Assembly (NCBI GenBank): GCA_022711495.1
Contig: JAKLEX010000001.1
Location: 87,058 to 151,057, forward strand
Direction of reading: 5' to 3'
Source of the DNA: Patescibacteria group bacterium
GTDB lineage: Bacteria > Patescibacteriota > Minisyncoccia > Phycocordibacterales > JAACPR01
Length of the DNA: 64,000 bases
Part shown: piece by piece, positions 4,086 through 55,426 of the stretch
Numbering within the stretch: the first letter of the stretch is position 1
Layout of the letters: each line of letters starts with the position of its first letter
Made by a program: the position numbers and the translations under genes
The notes under the pieces: generated by a model
The model's database searches: none
The model's input: only the letters and a program-made list of their open reading frames with translations
What the model was told of the DNA's origin: nothing

Positions 4086-4158
4086 GCGCCCGTGGTGAAA
4101 TGGATATCACAACGGTCTTCGGAACCGTCGTTGTGGGTTCGAGTCCTGCCGGGCGCGC
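4086..4158 (+). tRNA. tRNA-Arg (anticodon TCG)
   Basis: Cloverleaf: acceptor GCGCCCG/CGGGCGC, D-arm GTGA/TCAC, anticodon stem ACGGT/ACCGT with loop CTTCGGA, T-loop TTCGAGT; no encoded CCA. Confidence 0.8.
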
Positions 4159-4554: not shown

Positions 4555-4625
4555 GCGAGTATGGTTTAGTGGTAGAATGCGTCCTTGCCAAGGACGAGAC
4601 GGGAGTCCGATTCTCCCTACTCGCA
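4555..4625 (+). tRNA. tRNA-Gly (anticodon GCC)
   Basis: Acceptor GCGAGTA/TACTCGC, anticodon stem CGTCC/GGACG with loop TTGCCAA, T-arm GGGAG-TCCGATT-CTCCC. Confidence 0.8.
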
Positions 4626-4782: not shown

Positions 4783-5349
4783 GTGTATATAAGACATGTC
4801 TTTTTGATTTTTATGCTATTGACGGGGGCTATAGATAAGGTTGTTTTCATTATGTTTCATGAAAAACGTTTCACGTGGAACATCTCCACATTAATTTTAG
4901 GTAAAGCTTATATTTTATTTATTTTCTTGTGCCATATTTTGGAAATACCAAGCAAAATAAGGATAAAAGGGAATTTTGGCGAAGATATAGCAGTTAGGTT
5001 TCTCGTGAAACAGGGCTTTAGAATTTTAGCTCGTAATTATCTTAGACGGGCAGGTGAAATAGATATTATCGCCGAGCGGTTCGGGGAGATCCATTTTATT
5101 GAGGTTAAAAGCATATTTCTGAAAAATGTTTCCCGTGAAACGATTCGGGGCGGGGGATTAAATTACCGACCGGAAGAAAATGTGAGTCGTAAAAAAATAT
5201 TCAAGATGATCAAGGCGGCTGAACTTTTTCTGTTAGATAGGGGTCCGGGGGCTGCTGAGAAGGTACATTTTGATGTTATTGCTGAAGTCTTTGATTGTCA
5301 GGGAAAAATCTTGGGGTTCAGATATATAAAGGATGTAAATTGCGGATAG
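4783..5349 (+). CDS. YraN/UPF0102-family endonuclease-like protein with an N-terminal hydrophobic extension (predicted membrane anchor)
   Basis: C-terminal ~120 aa GEDIAVRFLVKQGFRILARNYLRRAGEIDIIAE...HFIEVKS...HFDVIAEVF matches the YraN fold; the N-terminal 60 aa carry 2 predicted TM helices; GTG start, so the true start is uncertain. Confidence 0.5.
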   Translation: MYIRHVFLIFMLLTGAIDKVVFIMFHEKRFTWNISTLILGKAYILFIFLCHILEIPSKIRIKGNFGEDIAVRFLVKQGFRILARNYLRRAGEIDIIAERFGEIHFIEVKSIFLKNVSRETIRGGGLNYRPEENVSRKKIFKMIKAAELFLLDRGPGAAEKVHFDVIAEVFDCQGKILGFRYIKDVNCG

Positions 5350-5978: not shown

Positions 5979-6054
5979 TGGTCGGAGCGCAGGGATTCGA
6001 ACCCTGAGTCATCTGCTCCCAAAGCAGACATGTTAGCCGTTACACCACGCTCCG
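5979..6054 (-). tRNA. tRNA-Pro (anticodon TGG), with encoded CCA
   Basis: Reverse complement gives acceptor CGGAGCG/CGCTCCG, anticodon stem TCTGC/GCAGA with loop TTTGGGA, T-loop TTCGAAT and a 3' ACCA. Confidence 0.8.
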
Positions 6055-7754: not shown

Positions 7755-7825
7755 GCGGGTGTGGTTTAGTGGTAGAATGTCTGCCTTCCAAGCAGAAGAC
7801 GGGAGTTCGATTCTCCCCACCCGCA
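7755..7825 (+). tRNA. tRNA-Gly (anticodon TCC)
   Basis: Acceptor GCGGGTG/CACCCGC, anticodon stem TCTGC/GCAGA with loop CTTCCAA, T-arm GGGAG-TTCGATT-CTCCC. Confidence 0.8.
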
Positions 7826-13414: not shown

Positions 13415-15154
13415 TTGGAACAAATGTTCATCGATGAAAACAAACTTCAAGAGTTTATGATTGACTCTGGTATTGTTACCCGCGATATCATAGATCGCGC
13501 GGTGGAAATCGCTGGCAAGGATCGCGGCGTGGGGGACTATCTGGTTAGCGAAGGGATCATCTCCGAAGACGAGTTGAAACGGGTACAGGCCTACATATTG
13601 GGCATTCCTTTTATAAATGTTGGTGCGCAGAAAATTCCTCTTGAGGTTTTGAGTCTGATTCCCGAACCGATCGCTCGGAGAAGCAATATCGTGGCTTATA
13701 ACAAAGATTCCTCAGACCTGGAAGTGGCCATGCTTGATACCGATAATCTTAGCGCGATTGATTTCGTCAAAAAGAAAACGGGATTGAAAATTCTCCCAAG
13801 ACTTACTTCCACGGAGGGTATAAAAAAGGCCTTGGCCCAATATCAGAAAAGTCTGAAAGATGATTTTGGAGATATTATCCGACAGGAGACTAATAATCTG
13901 GCCGGTTCTGGCGTTGACGATCCGGAAAATTTGAAAAAAGTTGCCGGCGGATTACCGGTTGTTCGCATCGTTGATACTTTGTTGAAGCACGCTTTATTAC
14001 AAGGAGCGTCTGATATACACATTGAGCCGTCCGAAGACCAGGTAATCATCAGATACCGGGTTGATGGATTACTACATGACGCCATGACTTTGCCAAAAAA
14101 TAGTAGTTCGGCCATCGCCGCCCGTATCAAAGTTTTAGCCAGTCTTAGGTTGGATGAAAAACGTCTTCCGCAAGATGGCCGATTCAAAATGGAACTGGAA
14201 GGAGAAAAAGTTTCTTTCCGAGTTTCAATACTGCCGATTTATTACGGCGAAAAAATTGTCTTGCGCATTCTTCGGGAAGGAGCCGGCGGCTTTACTTTGG
14301 AATCGCTGGGTTTTCACGGCGATGGACTAGAAAGAATTCACCGGGCGCTTAAGCAAACTACGGGCATGGTTTTAACTACTGGCCCTACTGGCTCTGGAAA
14401 GACCACTACTTTGTATACTCTGTTGGATCTTTTGAATGTTCCGGACGTGAATATTTCCACCATTGAGGATCCTATTGAATATCAGATGCCCAGAATTAAT
14501 CAGACTCAAGTCAAACCGGACATTGGACTTTCTTTCGCCAACGGTCTGCGCGCACTGATTCGGCAGGACCCGGACATTATCATGGTCGGCGAGATCCGCG
14601 ACGGAGAGACGGCCGGTTTGGCGATAAACGCCGCGCTGACCGGGCACTTGGTTTTATCAACTCTTCACACCAACAGCGCCGCCGGCGCCATTCCAAGACT
14701 GATTGATATGGGCTCGCAGAGTTTCTTGCTGGTTTCCACTTTGAAAGTGATCGTTGCCCAGAGACTAGTCCGAAAACTTTCAATGAATCGCGAGAGATAT
14801 TTCTTGAAGAAAGCTGGAGTTGATCAGTTGGCAAAGATTGCCGACCTTGAGCGCTTACATCAAGTTTTAGTTGATGAAAAGATCATAGATAAAAACGTAT
14901 CGTGGACGCAAATCCCATTTTATCGACCGGTCGCGGCTTCTGGCGAAGACGGTTTTTCTGGTCGAATCGGTATTCATGAAATTTTAAACGTTTCTGAAAA
15001 CATTCGTGAGTTGATTATCAAGAACGCGACTTCCGATCAGATTGAAAAACAGGCTCGGATTGAAGGCATGCTTACGATGATTGAGGACGGCATCTACAAA
15101 GCGGTTTTGGGTCAGACAACCATAGAAGAAGTTCTTCGGGTTATTTCAGAGTAA
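13415..15154 (+). CDS. pilB: Type IV pilus assembly ATPase PilB (GspE family)
   Basis: N-terminal GSPII_E_N-like domain, Walker A GPTGSGKTTT, His box and Asp box; 579 aa; TTG start. Confidence 0.85.
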   Translation: MEQMFIDENKLQEFMIDSGIVTRDIIDRAVEIAGKDRGVGDYLVSEGIISEDELKRVQAYILGIPFINVGAQKIPLEVLSLIPEPIARRSNIVAYNKDSSDLEVAMLDTDNLSAIDFVKKKTGLKILPRLTSTEGIKKALAQYQKSLKDDFGDIIRQETNNLAGSGVDDPENLKKVAGGLPVVRIVDTLLKHALLQGASDIHIEPSEDQVIIRYRVDGLLHDAMTLPKNSSSAIAARIKVLASLRLDEKRLPQDGRFKMELEGEKVSFRVSILPIYYGEKIVLRILREGAGGFTLESLGFHGDGLERIHRALKQTTGMVLTTGPTGSGKTTTLYTLLDLLNVPDVNISTIEDPIEYQMPRINQTQVKPDIGLSFANGLRALIRQDPDIIMVGEIRDGETAGLAINAALTGHLVLSTLHTNSAAGAIPRLIDMGSQSFLLVSTLKVIVAQRLVRKLSMNRERYFLKKAGVDQLAKIADLERLHQVLVDEKIIDKNVSWTQIPFYRPVAASGEDGFSGRIGIHEILNVSENIRELIIKNATSDQIEKQARIEGMLTMIEDGIYKAVLGQTTIEEVLRVISE

Positions 15155-15163
15155 TTTATAAAT

Positions 15164-16384
15164 ATGGAAGTTGAATATAAATATCGGGCGATAAATGCTG
15201 ACAATGATTTAGTCACGGGCTTTAGAAGTGCTCCGGATGAAATATCTTTAAACCGGATTCTGCTCCAAGAGAGACTGAGACTTATTTCAGTTGAGCGCGT
15301 TTCTAGATTTCGCATTAAAAAACTCTTGGCTAAGTTGGGTGATTTCAGCCGAATTTCTGAACACGACAAAATAATTATGTACAGAAACCTTGGCTCAATG
15401 CTCAGCGCGGGATTGTCGTTGGCCAGAGCGATTTCTGTCATGTACCGCCAGACCACCAGTAAAGTTTTCCGAAAAATTCTTGGCAAGATTGATGAAAGCA
15501 TCAAGAAAGGTTCCAGTTTATCTGAAGCGTTCAGGCAATTTCCTCGGATTTTTAATCCGCTGGTTGTCTCCATGGTTAAGTCCGGCGAAGAAACTGGAAA
15601 CTTAGCCAAGTCTCTGCGCGTTACCGCCGAACAGATGGAGAAAACTTATCTGCTCAAGAAAAAAATACGCGGCGCGATGATTTATCCGGGCTTTATTATT
15701 CTGGCTATTTTTGTGGTTGGGATTTTTATGATGATTTATGTTGTTCCAGTTTTGACCGATACTTTTAACGAGCTGGAGATCGAGCTGCCAATGTCAACTC
15801 GGGCCATCATAAGTATCAGTGATTTCTTGCAAAATAATCTGTTGGGAGTCGCGGTGGGAATTTTGATTTTGGCCGCGCTGGTTATCTGGTTTTTGAGAAC
15901 TAAGTCTGGAAAGAGAGTCTTTGATTCCGCCCTGATTAAAGCCCCGGGCTTGTCTCCGATGATTAAGGAAATAAACTCCGCCAGGGTGGCCAGAGCCATG
16001 TCCTCGCTTCTTTCTGCCGGTGTGCCGGTGGTCAGGGCGTTAGAAATTTCTAAAGATATTGTCCAGAATTCTTACTACAAACAAGCTCTGGAAGGGGCGG
16101 CGAAAAATATTGGCGAGGGTCTTCTGATCTCCAAAATTTTTGCCGAAAATAAAGATCTTTTCCCGACTTTTGTTTCAGAGATGGTCTCGGTCGGGGAGGA
16201 AACTGGTGAACTCGGCGGGATGTTAAATGAGGTGGCGGTGTTTTATGAAGCAGAGGTTGATCAAAAAATAAAAAATATTTCCGCCATTATTGAACCAGCG
16301 CTGATGATTGTCGTTGGCGTGGCGGTCGGATTTTTTGCCCTGTCTATGATCGGTCCGATTTATAGTTTGTCCGAAGGCATATAA
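15164..16384 (+). CDS. pilC: Type IV pilus inner-membrane platform protein PilC (GspF family)
   Basis: Two repeated GspF domains, 3 TM segments, directly downstream of pilB. Confidence 0.8.
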   Translation: MEVEYKYRAINADNDLVTGFRSAPDEISLNRILLQERLRLISVERVSRFRIKKLLAKLGDFSRISEHDKIIMYRNLGSMLSAGLSLARAISVMYRQTTSKVFRKILGKIDESIKKGSSLSEAFRQFPRIFNPLVVSMVKSGEETGNLAKSLRVTAEQMEKTYLLKKKIRGAMIYPGFIILAIFVVGIFMMIYVVPVLTDTFNELEIELPMSTRAIISISDFLQNNLLGVAVGILILAALVIWFLRTKSGKRVFDSALIKAPGLSPMIKEINSARVARAMSSLLSAGVPVVRALEISKDIVQNSYYKQALEGAAKNIGEGLLISKIFAENKDLFPTFVSEMVSVGEETGELGGMLNEVAVFYEAEVDQKIKNISAIIEPALMIVVGVAVGFFALSMIGPIYSLSEGI

Positions 16385-18679: not shown

Positions 18680-20383
18680 ATGAATTTTAAACTTGCTCCT
18701 AAAATAAAATCCGAAGATCGGGCTAAACTCAATAAATACTCTGATATTTTGGCTAATTTGTTGTATCATCGCGGTCTAAAGACCAATGAGGCCGCCGGAG
18801 CTTTTATTGATTTGGATTATGAGAACGGCTTAAACGACCCTCTAAAACTCAAAGACATTGAGATCGCCGTTGAGCGGATTCTTAGAGCGATTTCTGAGAA
18901 AGAAAAAATTTGTATTTACAGCGATTATGACGCTGACGGAATTCCCGGCGCGGTGGTTTTATCGGATTTTTTCAAGAAAATTAAATTTGATAATTATTTC
19001 GTCTACTTTCCGCACCGCAACAGGGAAGGTTTTGGCTTAAATAAGGGCGCTGTGGAAAAAATTGCCGATCTTAAAACCAGACTTGTCATTACTGTTGATT
19101 GCGGCGTCAGCGATGTTGCCCCGATTGCTCTGGCGGCGGAAAGAGGCCTGGATGTTATCGTGACCGATCACCACGATCCCAATAATCATCAGACTAAAGC
19201 TCTGGCGATCGTAAATCCGAAACAAAAATCTTGTCTTTATGCCGACAAAAATCTGTGTGGCACCGGAGTGATTTTCAAAGTTGTCCAAGCCCTGATTCAG
19301 AAAGGCCATTTTGACATCGGTGACGGCTGGGAAAAATGGTTGCTTGATTTGGTCGGAGTGGCCACTTTGTCCGATATGGTGCCGCTTATCGGAGAAAATC
19401 GCGTGTTGGCCAAATACGGATTGATGGTCATGAAAAAAAGTCCACGGAGAGGATTTATTCGTCTATTGAAAGAGTGCAAGATTGATCAGAATAAGATAAC
19501 AGAAGATGATGTCGGGTTTTCCGTAGCGCCAAGGATAAATGCGGCCTCTAGAATGGACGAGCCGGAGATCGCTTACAAAATGTTGTCTGCCACTGATGAT
19601 GTCTCGGCCGAAGAAACGGTAAAACATCTCCACAAAATCAACGCGGAACGCAAAAGCGCCGTGGCGACGATCGTCAAAAAAATTAAAAAGGAGCTAGGCG
19701 ACAATTTTACCCGGCCTATTTTAGTTAAAGGTAGCCCGGATTGGCAACCCTCTCTCTTGGGTCTGGTGGCCAATAGTCTGGTTGAGACTTACAAAAGGCC
19801 CGTATTTCTGTGGGGCCGCGGAAGCGGTGAAAATCTGAAGGGGTCTTGTCGATCGGATGGTACGGTGAATCTGGTTGAGATGATGAACGCCGTTTCTCCC
19901 GGAATTATCGGCGAATTTGGTGGTCACAAGATGGCCGGCGGGTTCATTGTCTATGACGACGGCGTTTATAATCTACCGACGGAACTGGAAAAAGCTTATG
20001 AGAAAGTTCAAGATGGCGCCTCGTCTGATGAAATATTGGTGGACGGCGAATTACGGTTGGAGGACGTGAATTGGAATTTGTACAATGATTTGCAAAAACT
20101 CGCGCCCTTTGGCGTCCAAAACGAGAAGCCAAAATTTCTTTTTAGAGGAGTTGTTCTTGATAAGGTGGACTTTTTTGGTAAAGACAAAAATCATCTTAGA
20201 TTACATCTCAGGGGGGGGAGAGGTCGTTCTGTCTCGGCTATAAAATTTTTCGGATCTGACTCCGAAACTTTTTCGAGAATGGCTCCTGGCAAAACGATTG
20301 ACCTGATCGCCAGTTTGGAGAAATCTGATTTTGGCCGACGTTCTGAATTGCGGCTGAAAATCATTGAAGCAGGTGCTATTTAA
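18680..20383 (+). CDS. recJ: Single-stranded-DNA-specific exonuclease RecJ
   Basis: DHH domain (IYSDYDADGIPGAVVL, VITVDCG, DHH), DHHA1 domain (GGHKMAGG). Confidence 0.8.
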   Translation: MNFKLAPKIKSEDRAKLNKYSDILANLLYHRGLKTNEAAGAFIDLDYENGLNDPLKLKDIEIAVERILRAISEKEKICIYSDYDADGIPGAVVLSDFFKKIKFDNYFVYFPHRNREGFGLNKGAVEKIADLKTRLVITVDCGVSDVAPIALAAERGLDVIVTDHHDPNNHQTKALAIVNPKQKSCLYADKNLCGTGVIFKVVQALIQKGHFDIGDGWEKWLLDLVGVATLSDMVPLIGENRVLAKYGLMVMKKSPRRGFIRLLKECKIDQNKITEDDVGFSVAPRINAASRMDEPEIAYKMLSATDDVSAEETVKHLHKINAERKSAVATIVKKIKKELGDNFTRPILVKGSPDWQPSLLGLVANSLVETYKRPVFLWGRGSGENLKGSCRSDGTVNLVEMMNAVSPGIIGEFGGHKMAGGFIVYDDGVYNLPTELEKAYEKVQDGASSDEILVDGELRLEDVNWNLYNDLQKLAPFGVQNEKPKFLFRGVVLDKVDFFGKDKNHLRLHLRGGRGRSVSAIKFFGSDSETFSRMAPGKTIDLIASLEKSDFGRRSELRLKIIEAGAI

Positions 20384-20438
20384 GAGGTATAATGTTTCTA
20401 TTATCTCATCTAAACTTATTATGAACATCTAAATCTTC

Positions 20439-21200
20439 ATGAAATTTGAAAGGTTCCCAATTGAAAAACAAGAAGCTGCGCCAGAAGAAATAAGGATGCT
20501 TTTTCGGGGCGTCTGGGCGGATGAATTATTCGGCGGGCAAGAGCTTCCTGTCGGTGGGAGTCTCTACTCGGAGCAATTGACCGGCAGATTGCAGCTGGAT
20601 TTTGAAAGTTTTGAGGATGAGCTCGGAAATTATACGGAAGAGGGCATGAAAGATTTTTTTGAGTCAAATGGAAATAACGACAAATATCGTGAGTACATTG
20701 AAAGTTTTAATTCAGATTTTGATCCTTATCTGCATTTTGTTTGTTATCAGATCCAAAACAAAATTATTTCTCTCTTGGAAATAGATCAGATAAAAAGAAC
20801 TAATGCTTTGGAAAGGACAAAAATGTATGTTGATAATGTGCCGAAACTGTCGGAGATGAAGGGCAAGACGATGTGCGGCGAGAGAGCTGCGTTGGCGCAA
20901 TATCTTTTACAAAAAATCGGCGTTGAATCGGCTTATGTCAGCGGGGTCAGCTCGTTTGATGAAGCCGGCGAGATGGAAGAAGGTCACAGCTTTATTGTAT
21001 TAAAAGATAAAGATGGGCAGACTTTTATCTTTGATGTCGCCCGACCGCACGAGGGAAATAATGTGCCGAGTATCTTTAAAACAGACGAACATTTTGACTA
21101 CGAACTGCTGGCTGGCAAAGAAGATTTATTAGTCGGCGGAACGGAAGTCTTAGTCGGCCAGCGCGCTTATTTCGGAGTCGGCGATCCGAATGTCCTATAA
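20439..21200 (+). CDS. Transglutaminase-like (papain-fold Cys-His-Asp) domain protein
   Basis: Core TMCGERAALAQYLLQKIGVESAYVSG ... EEGHSFIVL ... IFDVARP matches the transglutaminase-like catalytic triad spacing. Confidence 0.45.
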   Translation: MKFERFPIEKQEAAPEEIRMLFRGVWADELFGGQELPVGGSLYSEQLTGRLQLDFESFEDELGNYTEEGMKDFFESNGNNDKYREYIESFNSDFDPYLHFVCYQIQNKIISLLEIDQIKRTNALERTKMYVDNVPKLSEMKGKTMCGERAALAQYLLQKIGVESAYVSGVSSFDEAGEMEEGHSFIVLKDKDGQTFIFDVARPHEGNNVPSIFKTDEHFDYELLAGKEDLLVGGTEVLVGQRAYFGVGDPNVL

Positions 21201-21233
21201 ATAGGGGGCTGCCGAGACTTGATTCCGGCCCGA

Positions 21234-22631
21234 TTATAAATTAATTGTCGCAAATTCTAATTTGGCGAAGGAATTTACGATAATCAATATATATTTCAGA
21301 AATAAATAAGGCGCGAATCCGACAAACATGCCCAAAGTCTGGTTTAAAAAAGCCAGAACTGCGGCCAGAAAACCAAGAAGCATGGTCAGAGGGATAAATT
21401 GCAAAGTGATGATGTTAACTATTGGTGCGACGACCGACAATTGACCGGTCATTTTCATAAGTAACGGCAAAACCGCTATTTGGGTTGAAAAAGTTGAAGT
21501 AGTAATCTCGCGCAGGTTGAATTTTTCGGGAATAAACCCGAATAATTTCTGAACGAATTTGTTTAAATTGATTAATCCTAAAGTTGCCGTAAAAGACAGC
21601 TGGAAAGAAGGGTCGTAAAACAAGATCATCGGATTAATTAGGATCATGACGGAACCGGCCAGAAACAGGGCGCGATTAACTGAATAAGTTCGGCCGGAAA
21701 TTCTGGCAGTTAAAGCCAGGAGAGTCATAATGGTTGATCTGATGACTGTCGCTCCGGATCCGACCATAACGCTGAATACGATAATTGAACTGGCGCCGAT
21801 AATTGCGGAAAGAAAACTTGGTAAAAAACTAAAGAATTTCAATATGGCCTCGGCGATAATTGTGACGTTATATCCGGACAAAACGATGATATGAACCAAC
21901 CCGACTTTTCTGAAATTATTTTCTAATTCCGCGCCAAGCGATCTCTTGGCGCCCAGTAGAATGCCGCCTAGCAATTCGGCTTCGGGAGAGGGGAGGATCT
22001 GATTAATTTTTTCTATAAATTTTTGTTTTATGCTGAAGATTAATCTCTCAAATTTAAGTTCGCCGTTAGACAGAATTTCTATTTTGGGATAATACATCAG
22101 TGAATAAACACCGTCCTTCGCCAAGAATTTTATGTAATCAAATTCTATTTCGTTTTCATTCAGAAAATTCTCTGGCAGATTTATTTTGCCGAAACTCTTA
22201 ATTTTTTGGCCGGTTAAAAGCTCCGGATAGTGGCCGGTGGTAATTATTACTTTTTCTTGAGTAAAATTCCGGCCGGAATCGTGCTCAATCATTTCTGTTT
22301 TGACGGTGATGCGGCTGTAAGACTCTCTTTTGTCTATTTCACCGACAATTTCTCCAACCAGAGATATTTTTTCTCCGGCGAACTCCGCTATTTCTGATTT
22401 ATGAAAAGATTTTCCACCGGACCAGATGGTCAAAGTTGAAAAGAAAAAAGCCAAAGCAACCAAGCCGGCGATTTTGTTTTTAAATAGTGCCCAAATCAAT
22501 AGGCAAATCAAAAATATCAAAAAAACCGCTAAATACAGCGGTATTATATAGGTATGGTGGTTGGAGAAATTAAAAACACTTGCGCCGATTATTACTCCGG
22601 TCGTGATTGAATGGATGAAAAACCGCGCCAC
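21234..22631 (-). CDS. comEC: ComEC/Rec2-family DNA-uptake channel protein (DUF4131 plus competence domain), lacking the C-terminal MBL domain
   Basis: Multi-pass membrane protein; competence-domain motif LPSPEAELLGGILLGAKRSLGAELENNFRKVGLVHIIVLSGYNV; ends without a metallo-beta-lactamase domain. Confidence 0.7.
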   Translation of the reverse strand: MARFFIHSITTGVIIGASVFNFSNHHTYIIPLYLAVFLIFLICLLIWALFKNKIAGLVALAFFFSTLTIWSGGKSFHKSEIAEFAGEKISLVGEIVGEIDKRESYSRITVKTEMIEHDSGRNFTQEKVIITTGHYPELLTGQKIKSFGKINLPENFLNENEIEFDYIKFLAKDGVYSLMYYPKIEILSNGELKFERLIFSIKQKFIEKINQILPSPEAELLGGILLGAKRSLGAELENNFRKVGLVHIIVLSGYNVTIIAEAILKFFSFLPSFLSAIIGASSIIVFSVMVGSGATVIRSTIMTLLALTARISGRTYSVNRALFLAGSVMILINPMILFYDPSFQLSFTATLGLINLNKFVQKLFGFIPEKFNLREITTSTFSTQIAVLPLLMKMTGQLSVVAPIVNIITLQFIPLTMLLGFLAAVLAFLNQTLGMFVGFAPYLFLKYILIIVNSFAKLEFATINL

Positions 22632-22690
22632 GATTCAATTGTGCGGGTTGTGACTATTTTTGGGAAACAGATTTTTTAGAAAGAATTTAT

Positions 22691-23392
22691 CTATCTTTTG
22701 ATGCCCCAGCTCCTAAGAATTTCCAGCTCATCTTCGGCGGAAATGGTTTTACGAAATTTTGCTCCAGCTTTTCCCTTGACTCGTGCTTCGCACTCGGACC
22801 AGTTTGTGTGTTTGGACAACTTTCCGTCAATCAGACTTAAATATGAATAAGCTCGGGCGTTTTTCCTCTCTCGTTCGGAGTTTTCCGACAAAGCTTCTTT
22901 CCCGGGTTCGGACAGGTCTATTTTGTAATTACCGATATCGCCCTTAAATAAGAGAACACGCTCTCCGTCGCCAAAACCAGTGGCGATTTCGTCGGCGCGG
23001 TTGTTTCCCGAGACCCCGGCGTGTCCTTTGACTTGAAGCCATTCTATCTCTCTGTCCACGGCTACTTTGTAAAGTTTCTGCCACAAATCTTTGTTTAGGA
23101 CGTCTTTCTTGTCTGAAGTTTTCCAGCCGTTTTTTAACCAGCCGTGCACCCACTTGGTGATTCCGTTTATCAAATATCCCGAATCGGTGAAAAGTCTGAT
23201 TTTGCTACCGACTGGAGTTTTCTTTATGGCGTTTAAGGCCGCCGATATTTCCATTCGGTTATTGGTTGTTTTGGTTTCGCCATCGCCGATTTCCTCAACG
23301 TTTTTTCCTTCAATTATTATGGCTCCATAACCGCCCGGTCCGGGATTACCGCGAGAAGCGCCGTCTGTGTAAATTAGAATTTTACTGATCAT
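22691..23392 (-). CDS. rnhA: Ribonuclease HI with a C-terminal RNA/DNA hybrid-binding (HBD) domain
   Basis: TDGASRGNPG...TNNRMEISA...FTDSGYLINGITKWVHGW...GHAGVSGNNRADEIA. C-terminal ~80 aa: NWSECEARVKGKAGAKFRKTISAEDELEIL resembles the HBD motif (W-x-EC-x-V-x-G-x-AKFK-F-x-eA-x-F). Confidence 0.8.
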   Translation of the reverse strand: MISKILIYTDGASRGNPGPGGYGAIIIEGKNVEEIGDGETKTTNNRMEISAALNAIKKTPVGSKIRLFTDSGYLINGITKWVHGWLKNGWKTSDKKDVLNKDLWQKLYKVAVDREIEWLQVKGHAGVSGNNRADEIATGFGDGERVLLFKGDIGNYKIDLSEPGKEALSENSERERKNARAYSYLSLIDGKLSKHTNWSECEARVKGKAGAKFRKTISAEDELEILRSWGIKR

Positions 23393-23480
23393 CTTGATTG
23401 TTGTCGTCTAGTATAGCAAATAAATTTTCGTTTTAGATAGATTTAATTTTTATTTTATCTTTCGGCGTTTTAATGCGGGC

Positions 23481-24359
23481 GTGATCTCTAAAGATTCATG
23501 GCGGCGGTTGCTGGCCTTTATTTTGTTCGTTACCCTTCTGGTCTTTGCCATATTTGTCTTTTCGATCTTGCGCCACGAACGTGCCAGAAAGTTTTTGACC
23601 GTGGCCTTTCTTGATGTCGGTCAGGGAGATTCAATATTTATTGAAACTCCCGGCGGTCGTCAGGTTTTGATTGACGGCGGGCCCACCAGTTCTGTGACAA
23701 GGCCGCTTTCAAAACTTTTGCCGTTTTACGACAGGGAAATTGATTTAATAATTTCTAGCCATTCAGACCTAGATCATATCGGCGGATTCCCGGAAATCTT
23801 CAAAAGATTTCAAGTGAAAAGATATGCGACTTCCGACAAAAAAGATGCCGCCGATCTCTATCTTGAGCTGGAAAAATTAAGCGAGAAAGAAAAGGCCGAC
23901 AGGATATTTTTGAAATCAGGCGACAGGATAATTTTAGACGGCGAGAGCAATATTTTTTTGGATGTTTTGTGGCCCGAGGACGCCGATTCCGCCAGCGACA
24001 ACAATGACGCGTCAATTGTGGTGCGCCTGGTTTTTGGGAGCGAAAGTTTTATTTTGACGGGTGACGCGTCGGCCTCGGTTGAATCTGAACTAATTTCTCG
24101 ACTGATTGATCCGGACTTTTTGCGCGCTAATGTTTTAAAAGTCGGGCATCACGGTTCCAAAACTTCAACTAGTCAGAGCTTTCTTGATCTGGTCAACCCT
24201 GAATATGCCGTCATCTCCGTAGGTCTGGATAACAAGTTTGGTCATCCGGACGTGGAAACTGTAAGTTTGTTAATTGATAAAAATATAAAGATTTTTCAAA
24301 CAATAGATTCTGGCTCAATTATATTCGAGACAGACGGGAAGTCTCTTTGGGTTAAGTAA
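23481..24359 (+). CDS. Stand-alone ComEC-type metallo-beta-lactamase domain protein with an N-terminal TM anchor
   Basis: VAFLDVGQGDSIFIETPGGRQVLIDGGP ... SHSDLDHIGG ... KVGHHGS matches the MBL domain normally fused to the ComEC C-terminus. Confidence 0.7.
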   Translation: MISKDSWRRLLAFILFVTLLVFAIFVFSILRHERARKFLTVAFLDVGQGDSIFIETPGGRQVLIDGGPTSSVTRPLSKLLPFYDREIDLIISSHSDLDHIGGFPEIFKRFQVKRYATSDKKDAADLYLELEKLSEKEKADRIFLKSGDRIILDGESNIFLDVLWPEDADSASDNNDASIVVRLVFGSESFILTGDASASVESELISRLIDPDFLRANVLKVGHHGSKTSTSQSFLDLVNPEYAVISVGLDNKFGHPDVETVSLLIDKNIKIFQTIDSGSIIFETDGKSLWVK

Positions 24360-24362
24360 AAT

Positions 24363-24605
24363 TTAGATAAGGCCAGCTTTTTTTAGAACTTTGTAAGCCC
24401 CCCGTTTGGTGATGGTTTTTAAGCCCTTAGCTGAAACATTTATGCTAACGCTTTTGTTGAGTTCTGGCACAAAAATTCTTTTCTTTTGCATGTTGGCGTA
24501 GCGCCTTTTCATGCCGCCGGGATTAAATTGAGTAGCACGCGTACGATTGGAATATCGCCCGCTGACCAGAGATGATTTTTTTGTGATCGCGCAAACTTTT
24601 GCCAT
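24363..24605 (-). CDS. rpmB: 50S ribosomal protein L28
   Basis: MAKVCAITKKSSLVSG...RRFLPNL-like segment (KRIFVPELNKSVSINVSAKGLKTI). Confidence 0.75.
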   Translation of the reverse strand: MAKVCAITKKSSLVSGRYSNRTRATQFNPGGMKRRYANMQKKRIFVPELNKSVSINVSAKGLKTITKRGAYKVLKKAGLI

Positions 24606-24665
24606 GTTCTAGATTTGTGCGTGTCATGCTATCATGTCTATACAATTTTGCAATACTGATATCGT

Positions 24666-25283
24666 ATGGACGGACAAATTATTTTCAGCGTTATCATCTT
24701 GATTTTATCCGTGATGATCCATGAAGTTTCTCACGGTTACGCGGCCTTATATTTGGGCGATGTCACGGCTAAATACGCCGGTCGGCTTACGCTTAATCCG
24801 ATTAAACATATTGACCCCATCGGCTCTATTATCTTGCCTCTAGTTTTCGTTATGATGAATGCCGGAATTGTTTTGGGTTGGGCCAAGCCGGTTCCGTATA
24901 ATCCTTATAATTTAAGAAATCAGAGATGGGGCGAACTGATGGTGGCTCTAGCCGGACCGTTGGCGAATTTTATTTTGGCCATTGTCTTTGGTTTGTTGGT
25001 GCGTTTCGCGCTTCCCCTTGGTTTGCCGATAATGTTTGTCCGGCTGTCTGTCTCCGTTGTTTTGATTAATTTGGTTTTGGCGATTTTTAATTTAATACCG
25101 ATTCCGCCGTTAGACGGCTCAAAAATTCTTTTTACTCTTTTGCCGATGGAAAACGTGTTGAAAATCCGTTCTGTCTTTGAGCGATATGGTCTTTTCCTTG
25201 TTTTATTTCTTGCCTTTTTTATCTGGCAACTAATTCTGCCAGCCGTGTATTTCTTGGCTCAAGTGATTACGGGGCTTAATTAA
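24666..25283 (+). CDS. Site-2 protease family zinc metalloprotease (peptidase M50, SpoIVFB-like)
   Basis: HExxH embedded in a TM helix (MIHEVSHGYAA), a second motif NLIPIPPLDG, multi-pass membrane protein. Confidence 0.6.
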   Translation: MDGQIIFSVIILILSVMIHEVSHGYAALYLGDVTAKYAGRLTLNPIKHIDPIGSIILPLVFVMMNAGIVLGWAKPVPYNPYNLRNQRWGELMVALAGPLANFILAIVFGLLVRFALPLGLPIMFVRLSVSVVLINLVLAIFNLIPIPPLDGSKILFTLLPMENVLKIRSVFERYGLFLVLFLAFFIWQLILPAVYFLAQVITGLN

Positions 25284-28525: not shown

Positions 28526-31105
28526 ATGAATCTTAGAAAAATCTTGTCGTTAGTTTTTGTGCTGACGATGTTGCCGATGGCCGCCAGAGCGGACGATATG
28601 TCCGGCAGTCTAGAACTGACCGATTGTTTCTCCGACGGTCTATACAGATTTCAGAGCGTCCAAGTTAGCGCCGGACCAGAGAAAGCCGTCTATAATCCCG
28701 GCGAGTCCATAGAATTTGTTGGTAGCGTTATAAACGAAAATTTATACCCCGTTGTTGACGGTAATGTTTTTGTCAGAATAAGTAAGGTCAATGCCAATTC
28801 CGCGACAGTAGACACGGTTTGGCATGACGTCGTTGATGAGTTCATGGCGGTTTCTGACATCTCAATCAGCGATGCAGCAAGCCAACCAATCTCTTTCTCT
28901 TGGCAGGCGCCCGGCACAATTGGGGCGGGTGATTACCGAGCCGATTTCTTTTTCTCCGTTGATAAAAGATTTAACCTTGGAGGACTTCCTTTTACGAATG
29001 AGATCGTAATAGGAACATCTTATTTTGAAATTGCCGGCTCATCGGTCAGGCCGTTTGTCTTGGATAGAAATAGTACCAAGGTAAATGACCAAACATATCT
29101 ACATATTGGAGAGTGGCCAGATGTACCGGCTGATTCCGCGGTAGAAATTAGTCAGCCCCTAAAAAACTTGTCTAACAAAGAAATCTCTCTTGATGTTACT
29201 TATGATTTATATTATTGGGACTCTTTGAGAGATTCTGACAAATTAGATTCTCGTTCCGAAAAAGTTGTCGTTCCGGCAAATGGATCGGTTAATTTGTCGT
29301 ACACCATAGAAAAGGTCTCCGAGCCGGTGTACTATCTGAGAATTAAAGCGACAAATGCTGGACTCTCATCTATCGTTAACGTCAGAGTTGTCTCATCGCT
29401 TGTCGCCAAGTCCAGGATCAATTATCCCGCTCTCAATGTCTTTCCTCTCATAAAAGACCAAGAAGCTACGGCCTTCTCTTGCTTTCACATGACTTCATAT
29501 GCGACAGACACTGGCCGCATAGTTTTGACGGTTAGTGACGAGAACGATCGCGTTTTTTCTTCCGGAGAATACGCGGGAGAAATCAGTAGCCAAATGGACG
29601 CGGTTGCCATGAATTTCTCGCCAAACAAAAATATAAGCTTTGCGAAATTAAAAGCTGAGCTGTTTGATTCAAGCGGCAAGCTTGTTGATCAGTACGAAGC
29701 CGTTTATGATTGCGAAGAAATCGGTAGTGAAAGTTGCCGACAACTTGACCAAGAAACGGCGACAGCGGCCTTTAATTATCTGGAACTGATCTATGTTGTT
29801 CTGATAGTTTTGGTGCTTGTCTTGATATTTGTCCGCATAAGAAAAATCGACGCGAACTCTTGGTCAAGAAAGGCCTTATCTATTATCGCGATTATCTTGG
29901 TTCTAATTCTGGCTTATATTGTTGTAAGAGCGGTCGCGCTCAAAAGTGGCATATCAAGCGCCACGGCGGAAGTTGTCTCTGGCGATGGCCGAACAAAAAC
30001 CGAGACGAAGTCTACTCCTTATAAAGAAAAAGCCTTTACGGGAAACAGGTTGGTTGTTTACGGAAACTTAAATCTTACGCACACCGTGACACTGACCGGA
30101 GGCGATAGCCGAGACGACGGCGGCTTTGATTTGGACGATGGCGACTCCGTTGGAATAAATTGGAACCGAGGATGTAGTTTTACGGCAACTGGCGGCGCAT
30201 GGGATACGCCAGTCTGCGGATCTTCACAGACATTTCATTCCGGCGACCGGGGTCATGATGGTTGGATTAAATTCCTTAACGAATCACAGACAGCAACGAT
30301 AGTGTCCAGCAATCCGGAGGTCGTGTCATGTAGCGGCTCTAGTCCAAATTGGACGTGTACCGGTTTGGAGTCTGGTTATGCCGATATCAGTGTCCATATA
30401 GACCAAGATCTCTTCTATCCGGAAATGTGTGTTGAGTGGACGGCGCAAAATGGCACGGCGTGTGTCGAATGCACCTCTAATATTCAAGGTAAATATGAGA
30501 CGTGTAATGATCGTGGTTTGAATTTGACGGTTACAACTCCAAGCTATAATCCAACATGGCGTATATATGTTGGTAGTTCAGACGCATGCGGTCCGGCCGC
30601 CGGCGAGACTCTCTCTGATTCTGACTGGCCGCTAGATGAAGAAGATGCGTGTGCTTATGGCGAAATGGAAAATCCGGGCGATGATGGTGATACTTATTCT
30701 TGGAAATGCGGAGACGTTTCATGTTCGGCCAATAAAGATGATGGTGACGACGATGATCCAGAAGAACCTCCTTACGAACCGCATCATTTGTTATTAATCC
30801 CTGACGACGCGTCAGCCATATCGCCAAATATTGTTAACCCGGGCGAACAGTGTACTGTCAGTTGGGAAGTAGATAGTAGCCAAAACGGGTCCTGCACGAT
30901 TATAAATATCGCAGACCAAGTAGTCGGAAGCGCGTTTGACTATACTGCCGGCGGAGAAAATTCTTTTGAAGCGTTGGTGGATCCTCAAAATGAATATAGA
31001 ATCGTCTGCACCGACAGCGCACCAGCCGAGCCGGGAGGGGAACCGGAATCCGTTACTAGTACCGTTCTGCGCTGTATTTTGAATCCGAACGTTGTTGAGC
31101 AGTAA
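28526..31105 (+). CDS. Large predicted cell-surface protein (859 aa): signal peptide, N-terminal beta-rich domain, central two-helix TM hairpin, and a Cys/Asp-rich C-terminal domain
   Basis: Signal peptide MNLRKILSLVFVLTMLPMAARA; TM1 LELIYVVLIVLVLVLIFVRI and TM2 IIAIILVLILAYIVVRAVAL about 15 aa apart; C-terminal half has over 25 Cys, an acidic run DDGDDDDPEEP, and no recognisable enzyme motifs. Confidence 0.5.
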   Translation: MNLRKILSLVFVLTMLPMAARADDMSGSLELTDCFSDGLYRFQSVQVSAGPEKAVYNPGESIEFVGSVINENLYPVVDGNVFVRISKVNANSATVDTVWHDVVDEFMAVSDISISDAASQPISFSWQAPGTIGAGDYRADFFFSVDKRFNLGGLPFTNEIVIGTSYFEIAGSSVRPFVLDRNSTKVNDQTYLHIGEWPDVPADSAVEISQPLKNLSNKEISLDVTYDLYYWDSLRDSDKLDSRSEKVVVPANGSVNLSYTIEKVSEPVYYLRIKATNAGLSSIVNVRVVSSLVAKSRINYPALNVFPLIKDQEATAFSCFHMTSYATDTGRIVLTVSDENDRVFSSGEYAGEISSQMDAVAMNFSPNKNISFAKLKAELFDSSGKLVDQYEAVYDCEEIGSESCRQLDQETATAAFNYLELIYVVLIVLVLVLIFVRIRKIDANSWSRKALSIIAIILVLILAYIVVRAVALKSGISSATAEVVSGDGRTKTETKSTPYKEKAFTGNRLVVYGNLNLTHTVTLTGGDSRDDGGFDLDDGDSVGINWNRGCSFTATGGAWDTPVCGSSQTFHSGDRGHDGWIKFLNESQTATIVSSNPEVVSCSGSSPNWTCTGLESGYADISVHIDQDLFYPEMCVEWTAQNGTACVECTSNIQGKYETCNDRGLNLTVTTPSYNPTWRIYVGSSDACGPAAGETLSDSDWPLDEEDACAYGEMENPGDDGDTYSWKCGDVSCSANKDDGDDDDPEEPPYEPHHLLLIPDDASAISPNIVNPGEQCTVSWEVDSSQNGSCTIINIADQVVGSAFDYTAGGENSFEALVDPQNEYRIVCTDSAPAEPGGEPESVTSTVLRCILNPNVVEQ

Positions 31106-47673: not shown

Positions 47674-48075
47674 ATGCTTTATCGGAAATGGCTTTTCAAA
47701 GAAATTGTTTTCTTGTCAGTGGTGATTGCTGTCGCGCACTATTACGCCAGTCTGAATTCGCTGTACTGGTCTATTGATTGGTTTGATATTCCAATGCATT
47801 TTTTCGGAGGGCTTTTGATGGGGCTCATCGCCTTGTTTGCTTTTTTTACTAGTGGCAAAATCCACTTGCCCCAGACTAATCGGGTAGTTATTTTTAGTAT
47901 AACCGTAAGCTTTGTTTTGATTATCGGCCTGTTTTGGGAATTATGGGAACTATTCGCCGGCTTATCTAGCGTTTTGAACGATTTGGGGGATACCATTCTT
48001 GACTTGGTCATGGACACTGTCGGGGCGATCGTCGCGTATCTTTTTGCGGTTAATAGAATATGGATAAGAAACTGA
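47674..48075 (+). CDS. VanZ-like small membrane protein (hypothetical)
   Basis: 4 TM segments; DIPMHFFGG and C-terminal E...LNDLGD..LD...DTVGA resemble VanZ-family motifs. Confidence 0.35.
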   Translation: MLYRKWLFKEIVFLSVVIAVAHYYASLNSLYWSIDWFDIPMHFFGGLLMGLIALFAFFTSGKIHLPQTNRVVIFSITVSFVLIIGLFWELWELFAGLSSVLNDLGDTILDLVMDTVGAIVAYLFAVNRIWIRN

Positions 48076-55108: not shown

Positions 55109-55426
55109 ATGAATTTTGAACTTGAGGATAGCAGACAGAATTTTATTAACCCAAACGCCGCTGACCAGGAAGAGAAAGGCTTTTCTCTGGCCAGTTTTTT
55201 GGTCAAGAAAAAGATTGTAAGCGATTACCGCAAAGCCAATATCTTGTTATTGTCGGTGTCGGTAATAATTATCGTGATTTCTGTTTTAATGGCCTATTTT
55301 GTTTTGCGGCCAGAAAAAGTAGTAAATTATGAAGATCTGCCCTTGAGCGAAAAGATGAAGATTTCGCCCGAACTCAGAGAGACTCTTGATAGAATACAAT
55401 TAGATAATCAAAAATATGGAAACTAA
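55109..55426 (+). CDS. Hypothetical single-pass membrane protein (105 aa)
   Basis: TM ILLLSVSVIIIVISVLMAYFVL; 3' end overlaps the pilin gene start by 11 nt. Confidence 0.3.
   Translation: MNFELEDSRQNFINPNAADQEEKGFSLASFLVKKKIVSDYRKANILLLSVSVIIIVISVLMAYFVLRPEKVVNYEDLPLSEKMKISPELRETLDRIQLDNQKYGN

Follow-up and report, generated by a model that had tools for sequence, protein, structure and literature searches.

A two-gene ComEC in Patescibacteria: channel and metallo-beta-lactamase nuclease encoded separately, and on opposite strands in one inverted clade

Organisation of the locus

The genes described here lie in the window, that is, the whole stretch of 64,000 nucleotides analysed from contig JAKLEX010000001.1 of an ultra-small Patescibacteria group bacterium (assembly GCA_022711495.1). 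A preliminary description of this DNA had claimed that the competence protein ComEC is split, its membrane channel half and its metallo-beta-lactamase (MBL) half being encoded on opposite strands with rnhA between them, and the three ORFs are indeed found in this arrangement. The features of the locus are the following (positions are those of the window).

18680 to 20383, plus strand: recJ, with DHH, DHHA1 and RecJ_OB domains; left-hand anchor of a conserved syntenic block
20439 to 21200, plus strand: ORF of 253 aa, function unassigned; left border of the inverted segment
21234 to 22631, minus strand: ComEC channel subunit, 465 aa, with N-terminal TM helices, OB fold (DUF4131) and competence channel domain
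22632 to 22690, minus strand: spacer of 59 bp separating the rnhA and channel genes; minus strand free of terminator-like sites in the scan
22691 to 23392, minus strand: RNase HI (rnhA), 233 aa, matching NF001236 and PF00075
23393 to 23480, no strand: intergenic region of 88 bp from which rnhA and the MBL gene diverge; right border of the inversion specific to the clade
23481 to 24359, plus strand: ComEC nuclease subunit, 292 aa, with one N-terminal TM helix and a ComEC-type MBL domain
24363 to 24605, minus strand: rpmB (L28); right-hand syntenic anchor, convergent with the MBL gene

Downstream of rpmB, the genes for an M50 protease, rpsL, rpsG and fusA are found. The rnhA gene shares its orientation with the channel gene, as first described. 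It precedes the channel gene by 59 bp and diverges from the MBL gene across the 88-bp region. Since the minus strand between rnhA and the channel gene carries no terminator-like site, both genes are probably co-transcribed. A scan of positions 20300 to 24800 gave 10 promoter-like sites against 8.3 expected by chance and 7 terminator-like sites against 5.3, and no promoter signal above chance was detected in the 88-bp intergenic region.

The channel subunit and the break point

The channel ORF consists of the two N-terminal modules of ComEC, as had been proposed: DUF4131 (PF13567) at residues 32-186 (64.5 bits, E 1.3e-17) and the Competence domain (PF03772) at residues 224-464 (125.2 bits, E 4e-36). 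It covers positions 29-386 of the 663 positions of TIGR00361, the full-length ComEC model, and aligns to residues 58-457 of the solved ComEC 30bt (801 aa). The channel arginine, R298 in the numbering of the window protein, is invariant in alignments A2 and A3. The ORF stops at the end of the competence domain, and the Pfam search returned no MBL match in it; moreover, the gap to the next ORF is just 33 bp, which leaves no room for a degenerate MBL domain, the case that had been named as able to overturn the proposed split. The MBL nuclease that the three-domain definition of ComEC/Rec2 places on the channel polypeptide thus has a gene of its own, on the opposite strand, and each protein alone scores below the 190-bit equivalog cut-off of TIGR00361 (78 bits for the channel and 144.4 bits for the MBL protein).

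The position of the break can be located closely. In the break-point alignment, fused ComECs show the order "...ASINV - TM(a) - loop of about 25 aa - TM(b) - MBL". The channel ORF of the window, with its C-terminus "...EFATINL", ends immediately before TM(a), the penultimate TM helix of the fused proteins, and the MBL ORF begins at TM(b). In some split channel ORFs of other loci (L008, L070, P0162 and P0164), TM(a) and the loop are still present.

The stand-alone MBL nuclease subunit

The 292-aa protein carries a Lactamase_B domain (PF00753) at residues 45-248 (E 3.7e-20), with no Beta-Casp match in the Pfam search. It covers positions 426-663 of TIGR00361 in one continuous stretch, and residues 508-789 of 30bt (E 1.3e-33), the latter match taking in the TM helix that precedes the nuclease domain. 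The domain boundaries checked against these two full-length references are therefore complementary in both ORFs, and the stand-alone gene encodes the TM-anchored domain that the channel half lacks. The motifs quoted for it in the preliminary description (VAFLDVGQGDS, HSDLDHIGG and VGHHGS) are all present, and the metal-binding motifs D-x-G-x-G-D, H-x-D-x-D-H, the bridging D and H-H-G-S are found as DVGQGD, HSDLDH, TGD and GHHGS. In 31 stand-alone homologues these motifs are invariant or nearly so, the invariant residues being D50, D96, D98, H99, D195, H223 and H224.

A glyoxalase-II-like or other MBL subfamily had been envisaged as the finding that would undo the assignment, and the structural comparisons point elsewhere. 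The best PDB sequence matches of the protein are six ComEC entries (E 1.3e-33 to 1.8e-18), followed by a B3 lactamase at E 2e-4. The AF2 model (pLDDT 92.8) has as its top Foldseek match 9ic4, a ComEC nuclease domain (E 3.4e-26, TM 0.88, rmsd 2.2 A), and the runner-up, Pce (E 3.7e-14), is twelve orders of magnitude behind. On sequence and predicted fold, the protein is thus assigned to the type of the ComEC C-terminal domain (CTD) and to no other MBL subfamily.

The ORF contains one strong hydrophobic helix at residues 11-29 approximately (4-34 in the AF2 model), which is the homologue of the final TM helix in fused ComEC and poorly conserved in sequence in the 31-homologue alignment. In fused ComEC the nuclease domain is periplasmic (PMC13539106). 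From the homology of both the TM helix and the domain with the fused protein, the nuclease domain of the 292-aa protein is predicted to be extracytoplasmic and to be a DNase. The isolated ComEC nuclease domain has been characterized as an active endonuclease and 5'-3' exonuclease, with an activity that is enhanced by the OB fold (PMC12455585; PMC13539106).

Nucleases of several anti-phage systems are known relatives of the ComEC MBL domain (PMC12799240), and the protein might accordingly be taken for a defence effector of the HamM, LmuA, Avs1a or DRT-associated type rather than for a competence protein. PADLOC does report matches to LmuA (102 bits), RTasMBL and Avs1a, and NCBIfam to Avs1a and 6A-MBL. 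All of them are far below the family cut-offs and most are in two pieces, whereas the ComEC match is continuous and higher-scoring; furthermore, the PADLOC matches are limited to the MBL ORF itself. No protease, LmuB, helicase, STAND NTPase or reverse-transcriptase partner occurs nearby, the neighbours being recJ, rnhA, rpmB and the M50 protease gene, and the protein has a TM anchor and a fixed place in a housekeeping syntenic block across the class. The gene context effectively refutes a defence role, to which practically no probability is given.

The split across Patescibacteria

The comparison set comprised 80 species loci, 51 from Patescibacteria (CPR) and 29 from non-CPR bacteria. Fused ComEC was found in none of the 51 CPR loci and in 18 of the 29 non-CPR loci, which represent the nearest relatives, so that the split is conserved across the lineage. 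Same-strand linkage of the channel and MBL genes is seen in 33 of the 51 CPR species loci and in 28 of the 34 for which 5 kb or more of upstream sequence was available; in 10 CPR species the two genes abut or overlap. The remaining 6 of these 34 loci have an MBL gene and no channel gene nearby. The best 120 homologues of each half all have a single-half architecture. Thus, a two-gene ComEC is the norm of the lineage, and the window is an ordinary member of this lineage-wide pattern: a real variant of a known system.

The absence of the ComEC fusion in CPR had already been published (Meheust et al. 2019). Beyond that statement, no earlier description of a trans-encoded ComEC nuclease was found in the openly searchable literature. 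The preliminary description had held that the MBL nuclease is fused to the channel in most bacteria, which is overstated, the published figure being about half (52% of competence-domain proteins; PMC6299819).

In a neighbour-joining tree of the 80 MBL domains (midpoint-rooted and drawn without support values), the fused CTDs of Chloroflexota nest among the stand-alone CPR proteins. This tree shows that the stand-alone MBL is orthologous to the ComEC CTD, but it does not settle the number or the direction of the events, fission or fusion.

Separate halves could in principle also stem from an artefact of assembly, from a frameshift or from a pseudogene in decay. Nothing specific speaks in favour of such an origin, and it was rejected as having a negligible probability: the two genes are on opposite strands, the layout recurs in five independent assemblies, neither ORF is truncated, the functional residues of both are invariant, and single-half homologues number in the hundreds.

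Gene order and inversion

The usual order in CPR is recJ, RNase H, channel, in some cases sod, and MBL; recJ is upstream of the RNase H and channel genes in 20 relatives. The inverted layout is common to the window and five related genomes (L081-L085), in which the divergent spacer between rnhA and the MBL gene measures 42-84 bp, against 88 bp in the window. The position of sod is informative. In 14 non-inverted loci it separates the channel gene from the MBL gene and is read from the opposite strand, and in L081, L082 and L084, three of the five relatives with the inversion, its place is between recJ and the channel gene, exactly as predicted by an inversion of three genes; it is absent from the window and L085. 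The layout of the window is an inversion of the segment RNase H - channel - sod in a family-level clade, and the same-strand, often overlapping order is ancestral. It is because this segment was inverted that rnhA lies between the two halves and on the opposite strand. At the borders of the inversion only short, chance-level pairs of inverted repeats were found, and none flanks positions 21200 and 23480.

The 253-aa ORF at the left border (20439-21200) has no Pfam, NCBIfam or PADLOC match and no homologue among the 80 species loci. An ORF of 255-256 aa occupies the equivalent position in L081, L082 and L085, and this left-border ORF is confined to the closest relatives of the window.

RNase HI and its linkage to the channel gene

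The product of rnhA scores 173.8 bits with NF001236 over residues 2-138, above the equivalog cut-off of 160, and its catalytic domain spans residues 4-138 (PF00075, E 3e-42). It has a C-terminal extension of about 95 aa that resembles the hybrid-binding domain of RNase H1 and recurs in relatives. The Pfam search also matched the protein to Cauli_VI (E 0.0044).

It had been suggested that the layout signals a pathway reorganised around RNase H. Spelled out, this would make RNase HI a functional part of DNA uptake that processes, for instance, RNA:DNA hybrids imported from outside or arising on the entering strand, and its co-expression with the channel would be no accident. In 22 of 30 CPR loci the gene immediately upstream of the channel gene does encode a type-1 RNase H, and 12 of these 22 pairs overlap or are within 40 bp of each other. 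The slot is filled by either the HI-type or the RVT_3-type subfamily, which could mean displacement in situ under selection; the HI-type enzymes have the likely hybrid-binding domain, and recJ, which encodes a single-strand DNA exonuclease, is located just upstream. The opposite-strand order with rnhA in the middle is, however, the result of the clade-specific inversion, and the linkage is non-specific: RNase H belongs to a syntenic block of about 12 genes that includes unrelated housekeeping genes, with sod, rpmB, the M50 protease gene, rpsL, rpsG and fusA equally conserved, and its linkage is for that reason weak evidence for a role in DNA uptake. Furthermore, 8 of the 30 CPR loci have no RNase H at that position, unrelated genes are inserted between rnhA and the channel gene in L083 and L084 of the inverted clade, and the two enzymes work in different compartments, RNase HI in the cytoplasm and the ComEC nuclease outside the membrane. 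A search of the openly accessible literature found no published link between RNase H and ComEC. A functional part for RNase HI in uptake is consequently considered very improbable; the simplest view is that this housekeeping gene has travelled along with a long syntenic block.

The broader proposal that the conserved same-strand cluster of recJ, type-1 RNase H, channel and nuclease genes in Paceibacteria constitutes a functional module for the import and breakdown of foreign nucleic acid, rather than a chance synteny, is likewise considered improbable. If it were true, the RNase H slot would have been kept by selection despite the replacement of the HI-type by the RVT_3-type enzyme, and RNase H and RecJ would act on strands or RNA:DNA hybrids brought in from outside, making them available to recombination or nucleotide salvage.

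A proposed assembly of ComEC in trans

The two halves are identified as one split ComEC because they are complementary on one full-length model and on one solved structure. The reading preferred here, with a probability of about 0.7, is that ComEC in this Paceibacterota genome operates as two polypeptides, the anchored nuclease working outside the membrane together with the channel subunit, as it does in the fused protein. Subunit 1 (465 aa) contributes the TM helices of the N-terminal part together with the extracytoplasmic OB fold and the single-stranded DNA channel, and subunit 2 (292 aa) is the counterpart of the final TM helix and MBL nuclease domain at the C-terminus of canonical ComEC. 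The chain is broken in or beside the short cytoplasmic loop that joins the last two TM helices, a position from which each piece can insert with its normal topology and would leave the nuclease domain outside the membrane. Beside the OB fold and channel of subunit 1, the anchored nuclease would degrade the non-transported strand while the other strand enters, so that assembly in trans would replace the covalent fusion and do the same job. The physical association of the subunits and their part in strand degradation are putative.

Several observations weigh against assembly in trans. The nuclease is enhanced with the OB fold on the same chain (Stedman et al.), and a trans version could be less efficient; the divergent transcription units in the clade of the window do not enforce stoichiometry; the MBL gene stands alone in the six loci mentioned above; and the weak sequence conservation of the TM helix is no harder to reconcile with plain anchoring than with packing into the channel. 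The single-sequence AF2 model of the concatenated halves had a pLDDT of 39.8, too low to be informative, and the unpaired MAFFT alignment was left out, its MBL rows being stacked on the channel region at about 12% identity.

Some of these same points (the separate transcription units, the six solitary MBL genes and the weakly conserved anchor) would also suit a channel-independent, surface-anchored DNase of the EndA/NucA kind, which would cut extracellular DNA for uptake or nucleotide foraging, while the channel imported the resulting single strands or separated the strands otherwise. In addition, the isolated ComEC nuclease domain is active alone in vitro, and Streptococcus pneumoniae has a separate membrane nuclease, EndA (PMC12455585). 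The isolated domain, on the other hand, is a poor DNA binder that depends on the OB fold to be efficient (PMC12455585). The halves are a single protein in the nearest outgroups, which is a Rosetta-stone relationship, and both the same-strand linkage in most CPR loci and the abutting or overlapping genes argue for a joint function. An independent DNase is therefore regarded as possible but unlikely. For the same reason of linkage, the earlier suggestion that strand degradation is uncoupled from the channel was too strong.

The two-polypeptide ComEC had also been thought to serve an organism that must scavenge nucleotides. This is a published hypothesis, and it is weakened by Tn-seq data from a cultured Saccharibacterium, where comEC, whether split or fused, was dispensable for growth and required for transformation (PMC10633639). 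The latter requirement is indirect evidence for a role of the window's ComEC in DNA import.

Comparison with known systems and implications

Canonical ComEC/Rec2, as in B. subtilis and in the structures 30bt (from N. carbonis), 9vc6, 9vcb, 9vcf and 9vc9, has the same three modules in the same order, with the same conserved catalytic motifs and invariant channel arginine. In the present case, by contrast, the modules are distributed over two polypeptides and two genes, which in the window are on opposite strands in separate transcription units, and the window version lacks the penultimate TM helix and the cytoplasmic loop. The 465-aa protein alone has exactly the profile of the "DC-profile" ComECs that consist of DUF4131 and Competence only (Pimentel & Zhang 2018; CPR cases in Meheust et al. 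2019). Those papers treat the nuclease domain as absent, whereas in the window, as in the lineage as a whole, a linked gene supplies it in trans as a membrane-anchored protein.

EndA of S. pneumoniae and NucA of B. subtilis are likewise separate membrane-anchored nucleases outside the membrane beside a ComEC channel, the location that is predicted for the MBL protein. Their fold is of the beta-beta-alpha-Me type and unrelated to MBL, while the protein described here is an orthologue of the ComEC CTD. HamM, LmuA-MBL and Avs1a share with it an MBL nuclease fold related to the ComEC CTD and carried by an independent protein; they are, however, soluble pro-enzymes or effectors with proteases or NTPases, whereas the window protein is TM-anchored, has no such partners and is encoded in housekeeping synteny, beside its channel gene.

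The nuclease domain is absent from about half of all ComEC proteins, and how the organisms with a CTD-less ComEC degrade the second DNA strand is an explicitly open question (Silale et al. 2021). For Patescibacteria the genomic answer appears simple: the nuclease domain was never lost and is encoded next door as a membrane-anchored protein. Surveys that score "ComEC without Lactamase_B" as nuclease-less should thus look for a trans-encoded partner. Moreover, a natural two-piece ComEC offers a system for asking whether the nuclease and the OB fold and channel need a covalent link. The graded arrangements, from fused through overlapping and sod-separated to inverted divergent genes, are a clean example of a multidomain membrane protein taken apart with both pieces kept, a description for which the MBL tree leaves the direction, fission or fusion, either way.

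Finally, exact copies of the channel and MBL proteins are found at NCBI in a Candidatus Paceibacterota MAG, both labelled "ComEC/Rec2 family competence protein", and the channel protein of the window is 100% identical to P0121.

The two halves of ComEC

The system present in the window is ComEC, in a split form which is a lineage-wide variant. Its two genes and the RNase H gene between them are as follows:

21234-22631, (-): ComEC channel subunit, 465 aa, with DUF4131 (residues 32-186), Competence (residues 224-464) and no further domain
22691-23392, (-): RNase HI (rnhA), 233 aa, NF001236 at 173.8 bits against a curated cut-off of 160
23481-24359, (+): ComEC nuclease subunit, a metallo-beta-lactamase (MBL) protein of 292 aa, with Lactamase_B (residues 45-248)

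The channel protein spans positions 29-386 of the 663 positions of the full-length ComEC model TIGR00361, and pairs in alignment with residues 58-457 of 30bt, a solved fused ComEC of 801 aa; the MBL protein spans positions 426-663 of the model (144 bits) and matches residues 508-789 of 30bt (E 1.3e-33), including the TM helix ahead of the nuclease domain. The preliminary description had read the first ORF as DUF4131 and Competence without MBL, and the second as the missing TM-anchored MBL domain, and both readings are borne out by the domain search and by these mappings, on which the halves are complementary. A degenerate MBL domain within the 465-aa protein is excluded, since the chain stops at the end of the competence domain and the following ORF begins 33 bp further on, and the claim of a split survives.

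The motifs DVGQGD, HSDLDH, TGD and GHHGS are all found in the MBL protein, being invariant or nearly so across 31 stand-alone homologues. Its best six PDB sequence matches are ComEC entries, followed by a B3 lactamase (E 2e-4). Moreover, an AF2 model built from 31 sequences (pLDDT 92.8, pTM 0.88) matches the crystal structure of a ComEC nuclease domain, 9ic4 (E 3.4e-26, TM 0.88, rmsd 2.2 A), and, as second-best fold, the choline esterase Pce (E 3.7e-14), likewise the nearest structural neighbour of the ComEC domain in Stedman et al. (PMC12455585). Membership of another MBL subfamily, such as a glyoxalase-II-like one, is excluded by the ComEC identity of these sequence and fold matches. A second MBL protein of the window (48060-49436) is a beta-CASP, RNase J-type protein with no bearing on the split ComEC.

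Distribution of the split form

Identical copies of both halves are found in NCBI in a Candidatus Paceibacterota MAG, each named 'ComEC/Rec2 family competence protein'. For the MBL half, the 120 best homologues (254-347 aa) without exception have Pfam matches solely of MBL type; for the channel half, the best 120 (273-559 aa) all carry Competence, nearly all DUF4131, and none MBL; the source-named homologues of both sets are all of Patescibacteria type (Paceibacterota, Pacebacteria, Yonathbacteria, Parcubacteria group).

The survey covered 80 species-representative loci gathered via the MBL half and scored with HMMs from the two homologue alignments (A1 and A2). As to conservation across the lineage, proposed as a check, fused ComEC was found in none of the 51 Patescibacteria (CPR) loci. 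The channel gene lies upstream of the MBL gene, on the same strand, in 33 of the 51 (28/34 where upstream sequence reaches at least 5 kb), and the two abut or overlap (gap of at most 25 bp) in 10 of the 33 linked loci. Among the non-CPR loci (n=29), 18 are fused (608-967 aa, mainly Chloroflexota), three are split yet linked (e.g. the Armatimonadota locus L070, with overlapping genes) and eight have the MBL protein only. These results concur with the absence of ComEC fusion in CPR (Meheust et al. 2019) and with the DUF4131+Competence profile of 14/51 known competent species in Pimentel & Zhang 2018 (PMC6299819), where Lactamase_B was present on 52% of competence-domain proteins. In part the variant is already known, its 'loss of fusion' having been published and both halves being labelled ComEC-family in NCBI, and the window is an ordinary member of the lineage-wide pattern.

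Outside the Patescibacteria, stand-alone ComEC-type MBL proteins were observed in L061 (Anaerolineales), L063 (Gemmatimonadales), L070 and L078 (Armatimonadota) and L045, L071, L074 and L075 (Bacillota). In L070 the gene adjoins and overlaps the channel gene; in L061 a 769-aa channel-domain ORF with no MBL match at E<=1e-5 lies 6 kb away; some others carry additional domains and have no channel gene in the vicinity. Encoding of the nuclease in trans may therefore not be confined to the CPR.

Break point and topology

In the alignment of fused and split proteins, the fused ComECs read '...ASINV - TM(a) - roughly 25-aa loop - TM(b) - MBL', and the break could be mapped between the two forms. In the loci L008 and L070 and the homologous proteins P0162, P0164, P0172 and P0175, TM(a) and a basic tail are retained at the channel C-terminus, which places the cut within the cytoplasmic loop. 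The channel protein of the window stops at '...EFATINL', ahead of TM(a), as do those of L018 and L031, and its MBL protein starts with TM(b). Both cut positions leave each piece with the topology of the fused protein. By homology with the cryo-EM structure (PMC13539106), where the nuclease domain lies outside the membrane adjoining the OB fold, the stand-alone nuclease would occupy the same place.

Gene order and inversion

Paceibacteria share a long syntenic block, tpiA .. recJ > RNase H > channel > (<sod) > MBL > <rpmB > M50 > rpsL > rpsG > fusA, in which the RNase H, channel and MBL genes share one strand in non-inverted loci. In 14 loci the channel-MBL gap is occupied by an Fe/Mn superoxide dismutase gene (sod) of opposite strand, and in L004 by a gene for a VTT/DedA-type protein. 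The window and its relatives are arranged differently:

window: recJ > unk253 > <channel <rnhA MBL> <rpmB
L085 (also among the closest relatives): gene order identical to the window
L081, L082 (closest relatives): recJ > sod > unk255 > <channel <rnhA MBL>
L084 (MBL identity 46-53%): recJ > sod > <channel > LigT-like > <rnhA MBL>
L083 (MBL identity 46-53%): sod > .. <channel > two ORFs > <rnhA MBL>

In the window rnhA lies 59 bp upstream of the channel gene, on its strand, and diverges from the MBL gene over 88 bp. Flipping the three-gene segment [RNase H, channel, <sod] turns the common order exactly into that of the inverted clade; sod passed from the right to the left of the channel gene, with its strand flipped, because this segment inverted. 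As the layout recurs in six assemblies, an assembly error is rejected, and the opposite-strand order represents a derived inversion at family level; an artefactual origin of the split is likewise rejected, L081-L085 having the same layout. No repeats were found at the inversion borders. The opposite-strand layout with rnhA in between was correctly described, but its reading as a reorganised uptake pathway is not supported, the mid-position of rnhA being a by-product of the rearrangement.

Synteny of pilC, udg, tpiA and recJ, upstream of the ComEC locus, extends to L081, L082 and L085. The inverted segment is bordered on its left by the following ORF:

20439-21200, (+): 253-aa ORF, no match in Pfam, NCBIfam or PADLOC

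It is conserved only in L081, L082 and L085, and carries a Cys...His...Asp pattern (CGERAALAQYLL ... EGHSFIVLKD ... FDV) reminiscent of transglutaminase-like cysteine proteases.

The RNase H gene

ORF positions and the NF001236 score confirm an RNase HI between the halves, co-directional with the channel gene. That this enzyme is functionally tied to ComEC uptake is possible but unlikely. The channel gene is immediately preceded by a type-1 RNase H gene in 22/30 CPR loci with upstream sequence, 12 of the 22 overlapping it or sitting at most 40 bp away; the slot is filled by two subfamilies (RVT_3, PF13456, in 10/22 instead of the E. coli HI type), and the HI-type enzymes have a C-terminal extension with recurrent matches to the RNase H1 hybrid-binding domain. 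However, sod, rpmB, the M50 protease and the str operon are equally well conserved in the same block, RNase H is missing from the slot in 8/30 loci, rnhA is separated from the channel gene by other, inserted genes in L083 and L084, and RNase HI is a cytoplasmic enzyme, unlike the ComEC nuclease, which works on the outer side of the membrane. The literature search found no publication on such a link. A part for RNase H in a reorganised uptake is therefore not upheld, given non-specific block linkage and the eight loci devoid of it.

The extension of the window enzyme comprises roughly 95 aa (residues about 140-233), with Cauli_VI (PF01693) matches at the same relative position as in 7/9 relatives (L004, L006, L014, L024, L026, L081, L082), only that of L024 exceeding the Pfam threshold (25.4 bits vs 21). 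With the catalytic domain in front, the order of the two domains is opposite to that in eukaryotic RNase H1. The recJ-channel slot contains the E. coli-type enzyme in the window as well as in about a dozen further species; the RVT_3 type (136-152 aa) is upstream of the channel gene in L008, L011, L017, L030, L033, L034, L036, L041, L050 and L077. One subfamily may have been replaced in situ by the other.

A probable two-subunit ComEC

The best-supported reading is a two-subunit ComEC, whose nuclease subunit would assemble with the channel subunit or act right beside it; it is favoured because of the Rosetta-stone relation to fused orthologues, the persistent linkage and the gene overlap across the lineage. 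The main rival, in which the stand-alone MBL would act by itself at the surface as an EndA-like DNase, is a lesser possibility that still deserves consideration. The isolated ComEC nuclease domain has endonuclease and 5'-3' exonuclease activities; its DNA binding is poor, and the OB fold stimulates it (PMC12455585, PMC13539106), so that the stand-alone protein would be expected to function beside the OB fold. A defence-effector role was rejected from the gene context.

How ComECs without the CTD degrade the second strand is a stated open question (Silale et al. 2021), on which the trans-encoded nuclease bears. The accessible literature yielded no mention of a nuclease kept in trans as a linked, anchored neighbouring gene, and no prior description of the break position or of the graded series from fused through overlapping and separated by sod to inverted.

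That the organism relies on uptake for nucleotides, as had been suggested, agrees with a standing hypothesis for CPR (Meheust et al. 2019), but in Tn-seq of a cultured Saccharibacterium comEC is not a fitness gene, though transformation needs it (PMC10633639).

Other genes in the window

The window also holds the following ORFs:

13415-15154, 15164-16384, 55416-56015 and 60214-61137, all (+): type IV pilus ORFs with T2SSE, T2SSF and N_methyl matches
51066-53822, (+): VirD4/TraG-like type IV secretion coupling protein, 918 aa (T4SS-DNA_transf, TrwB_AAD_bind, TraG-D_C)
4783-5349, (+): YraN/UPF0102-family ORF
137-811, (+): tyrosine-recombinase (Phage_integrase) ORF
28526-31105, (+), 859 aa, and 56033-58480, (-), 815 aa: large ORFs without Pfam match

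The pilus genes sharing the window with ComEC encode a PilB-like ATPase, a PilC-like platform protein and two prepilin-like ORFs (N_methyl motif). A conjugation-like T4SS has recently been described in Patescibacteria, which the VirD4/TraG-like protein fits, and YraN/UPF0102, a family of predicted nucleases, is mentioned in the competence literature. The YraN and tyrosine-recombinase ORFs are near a tRNA gene cluster (4086-4157, 4555-4625, 5982-6054, 7755-7825). Finally, the 859-aa ORF is matched in L085 by an ORF of similar size in the same place (864 aa, with no recorded Pfam match), and possibly in L081, where the ORF in this place runs off the locus.
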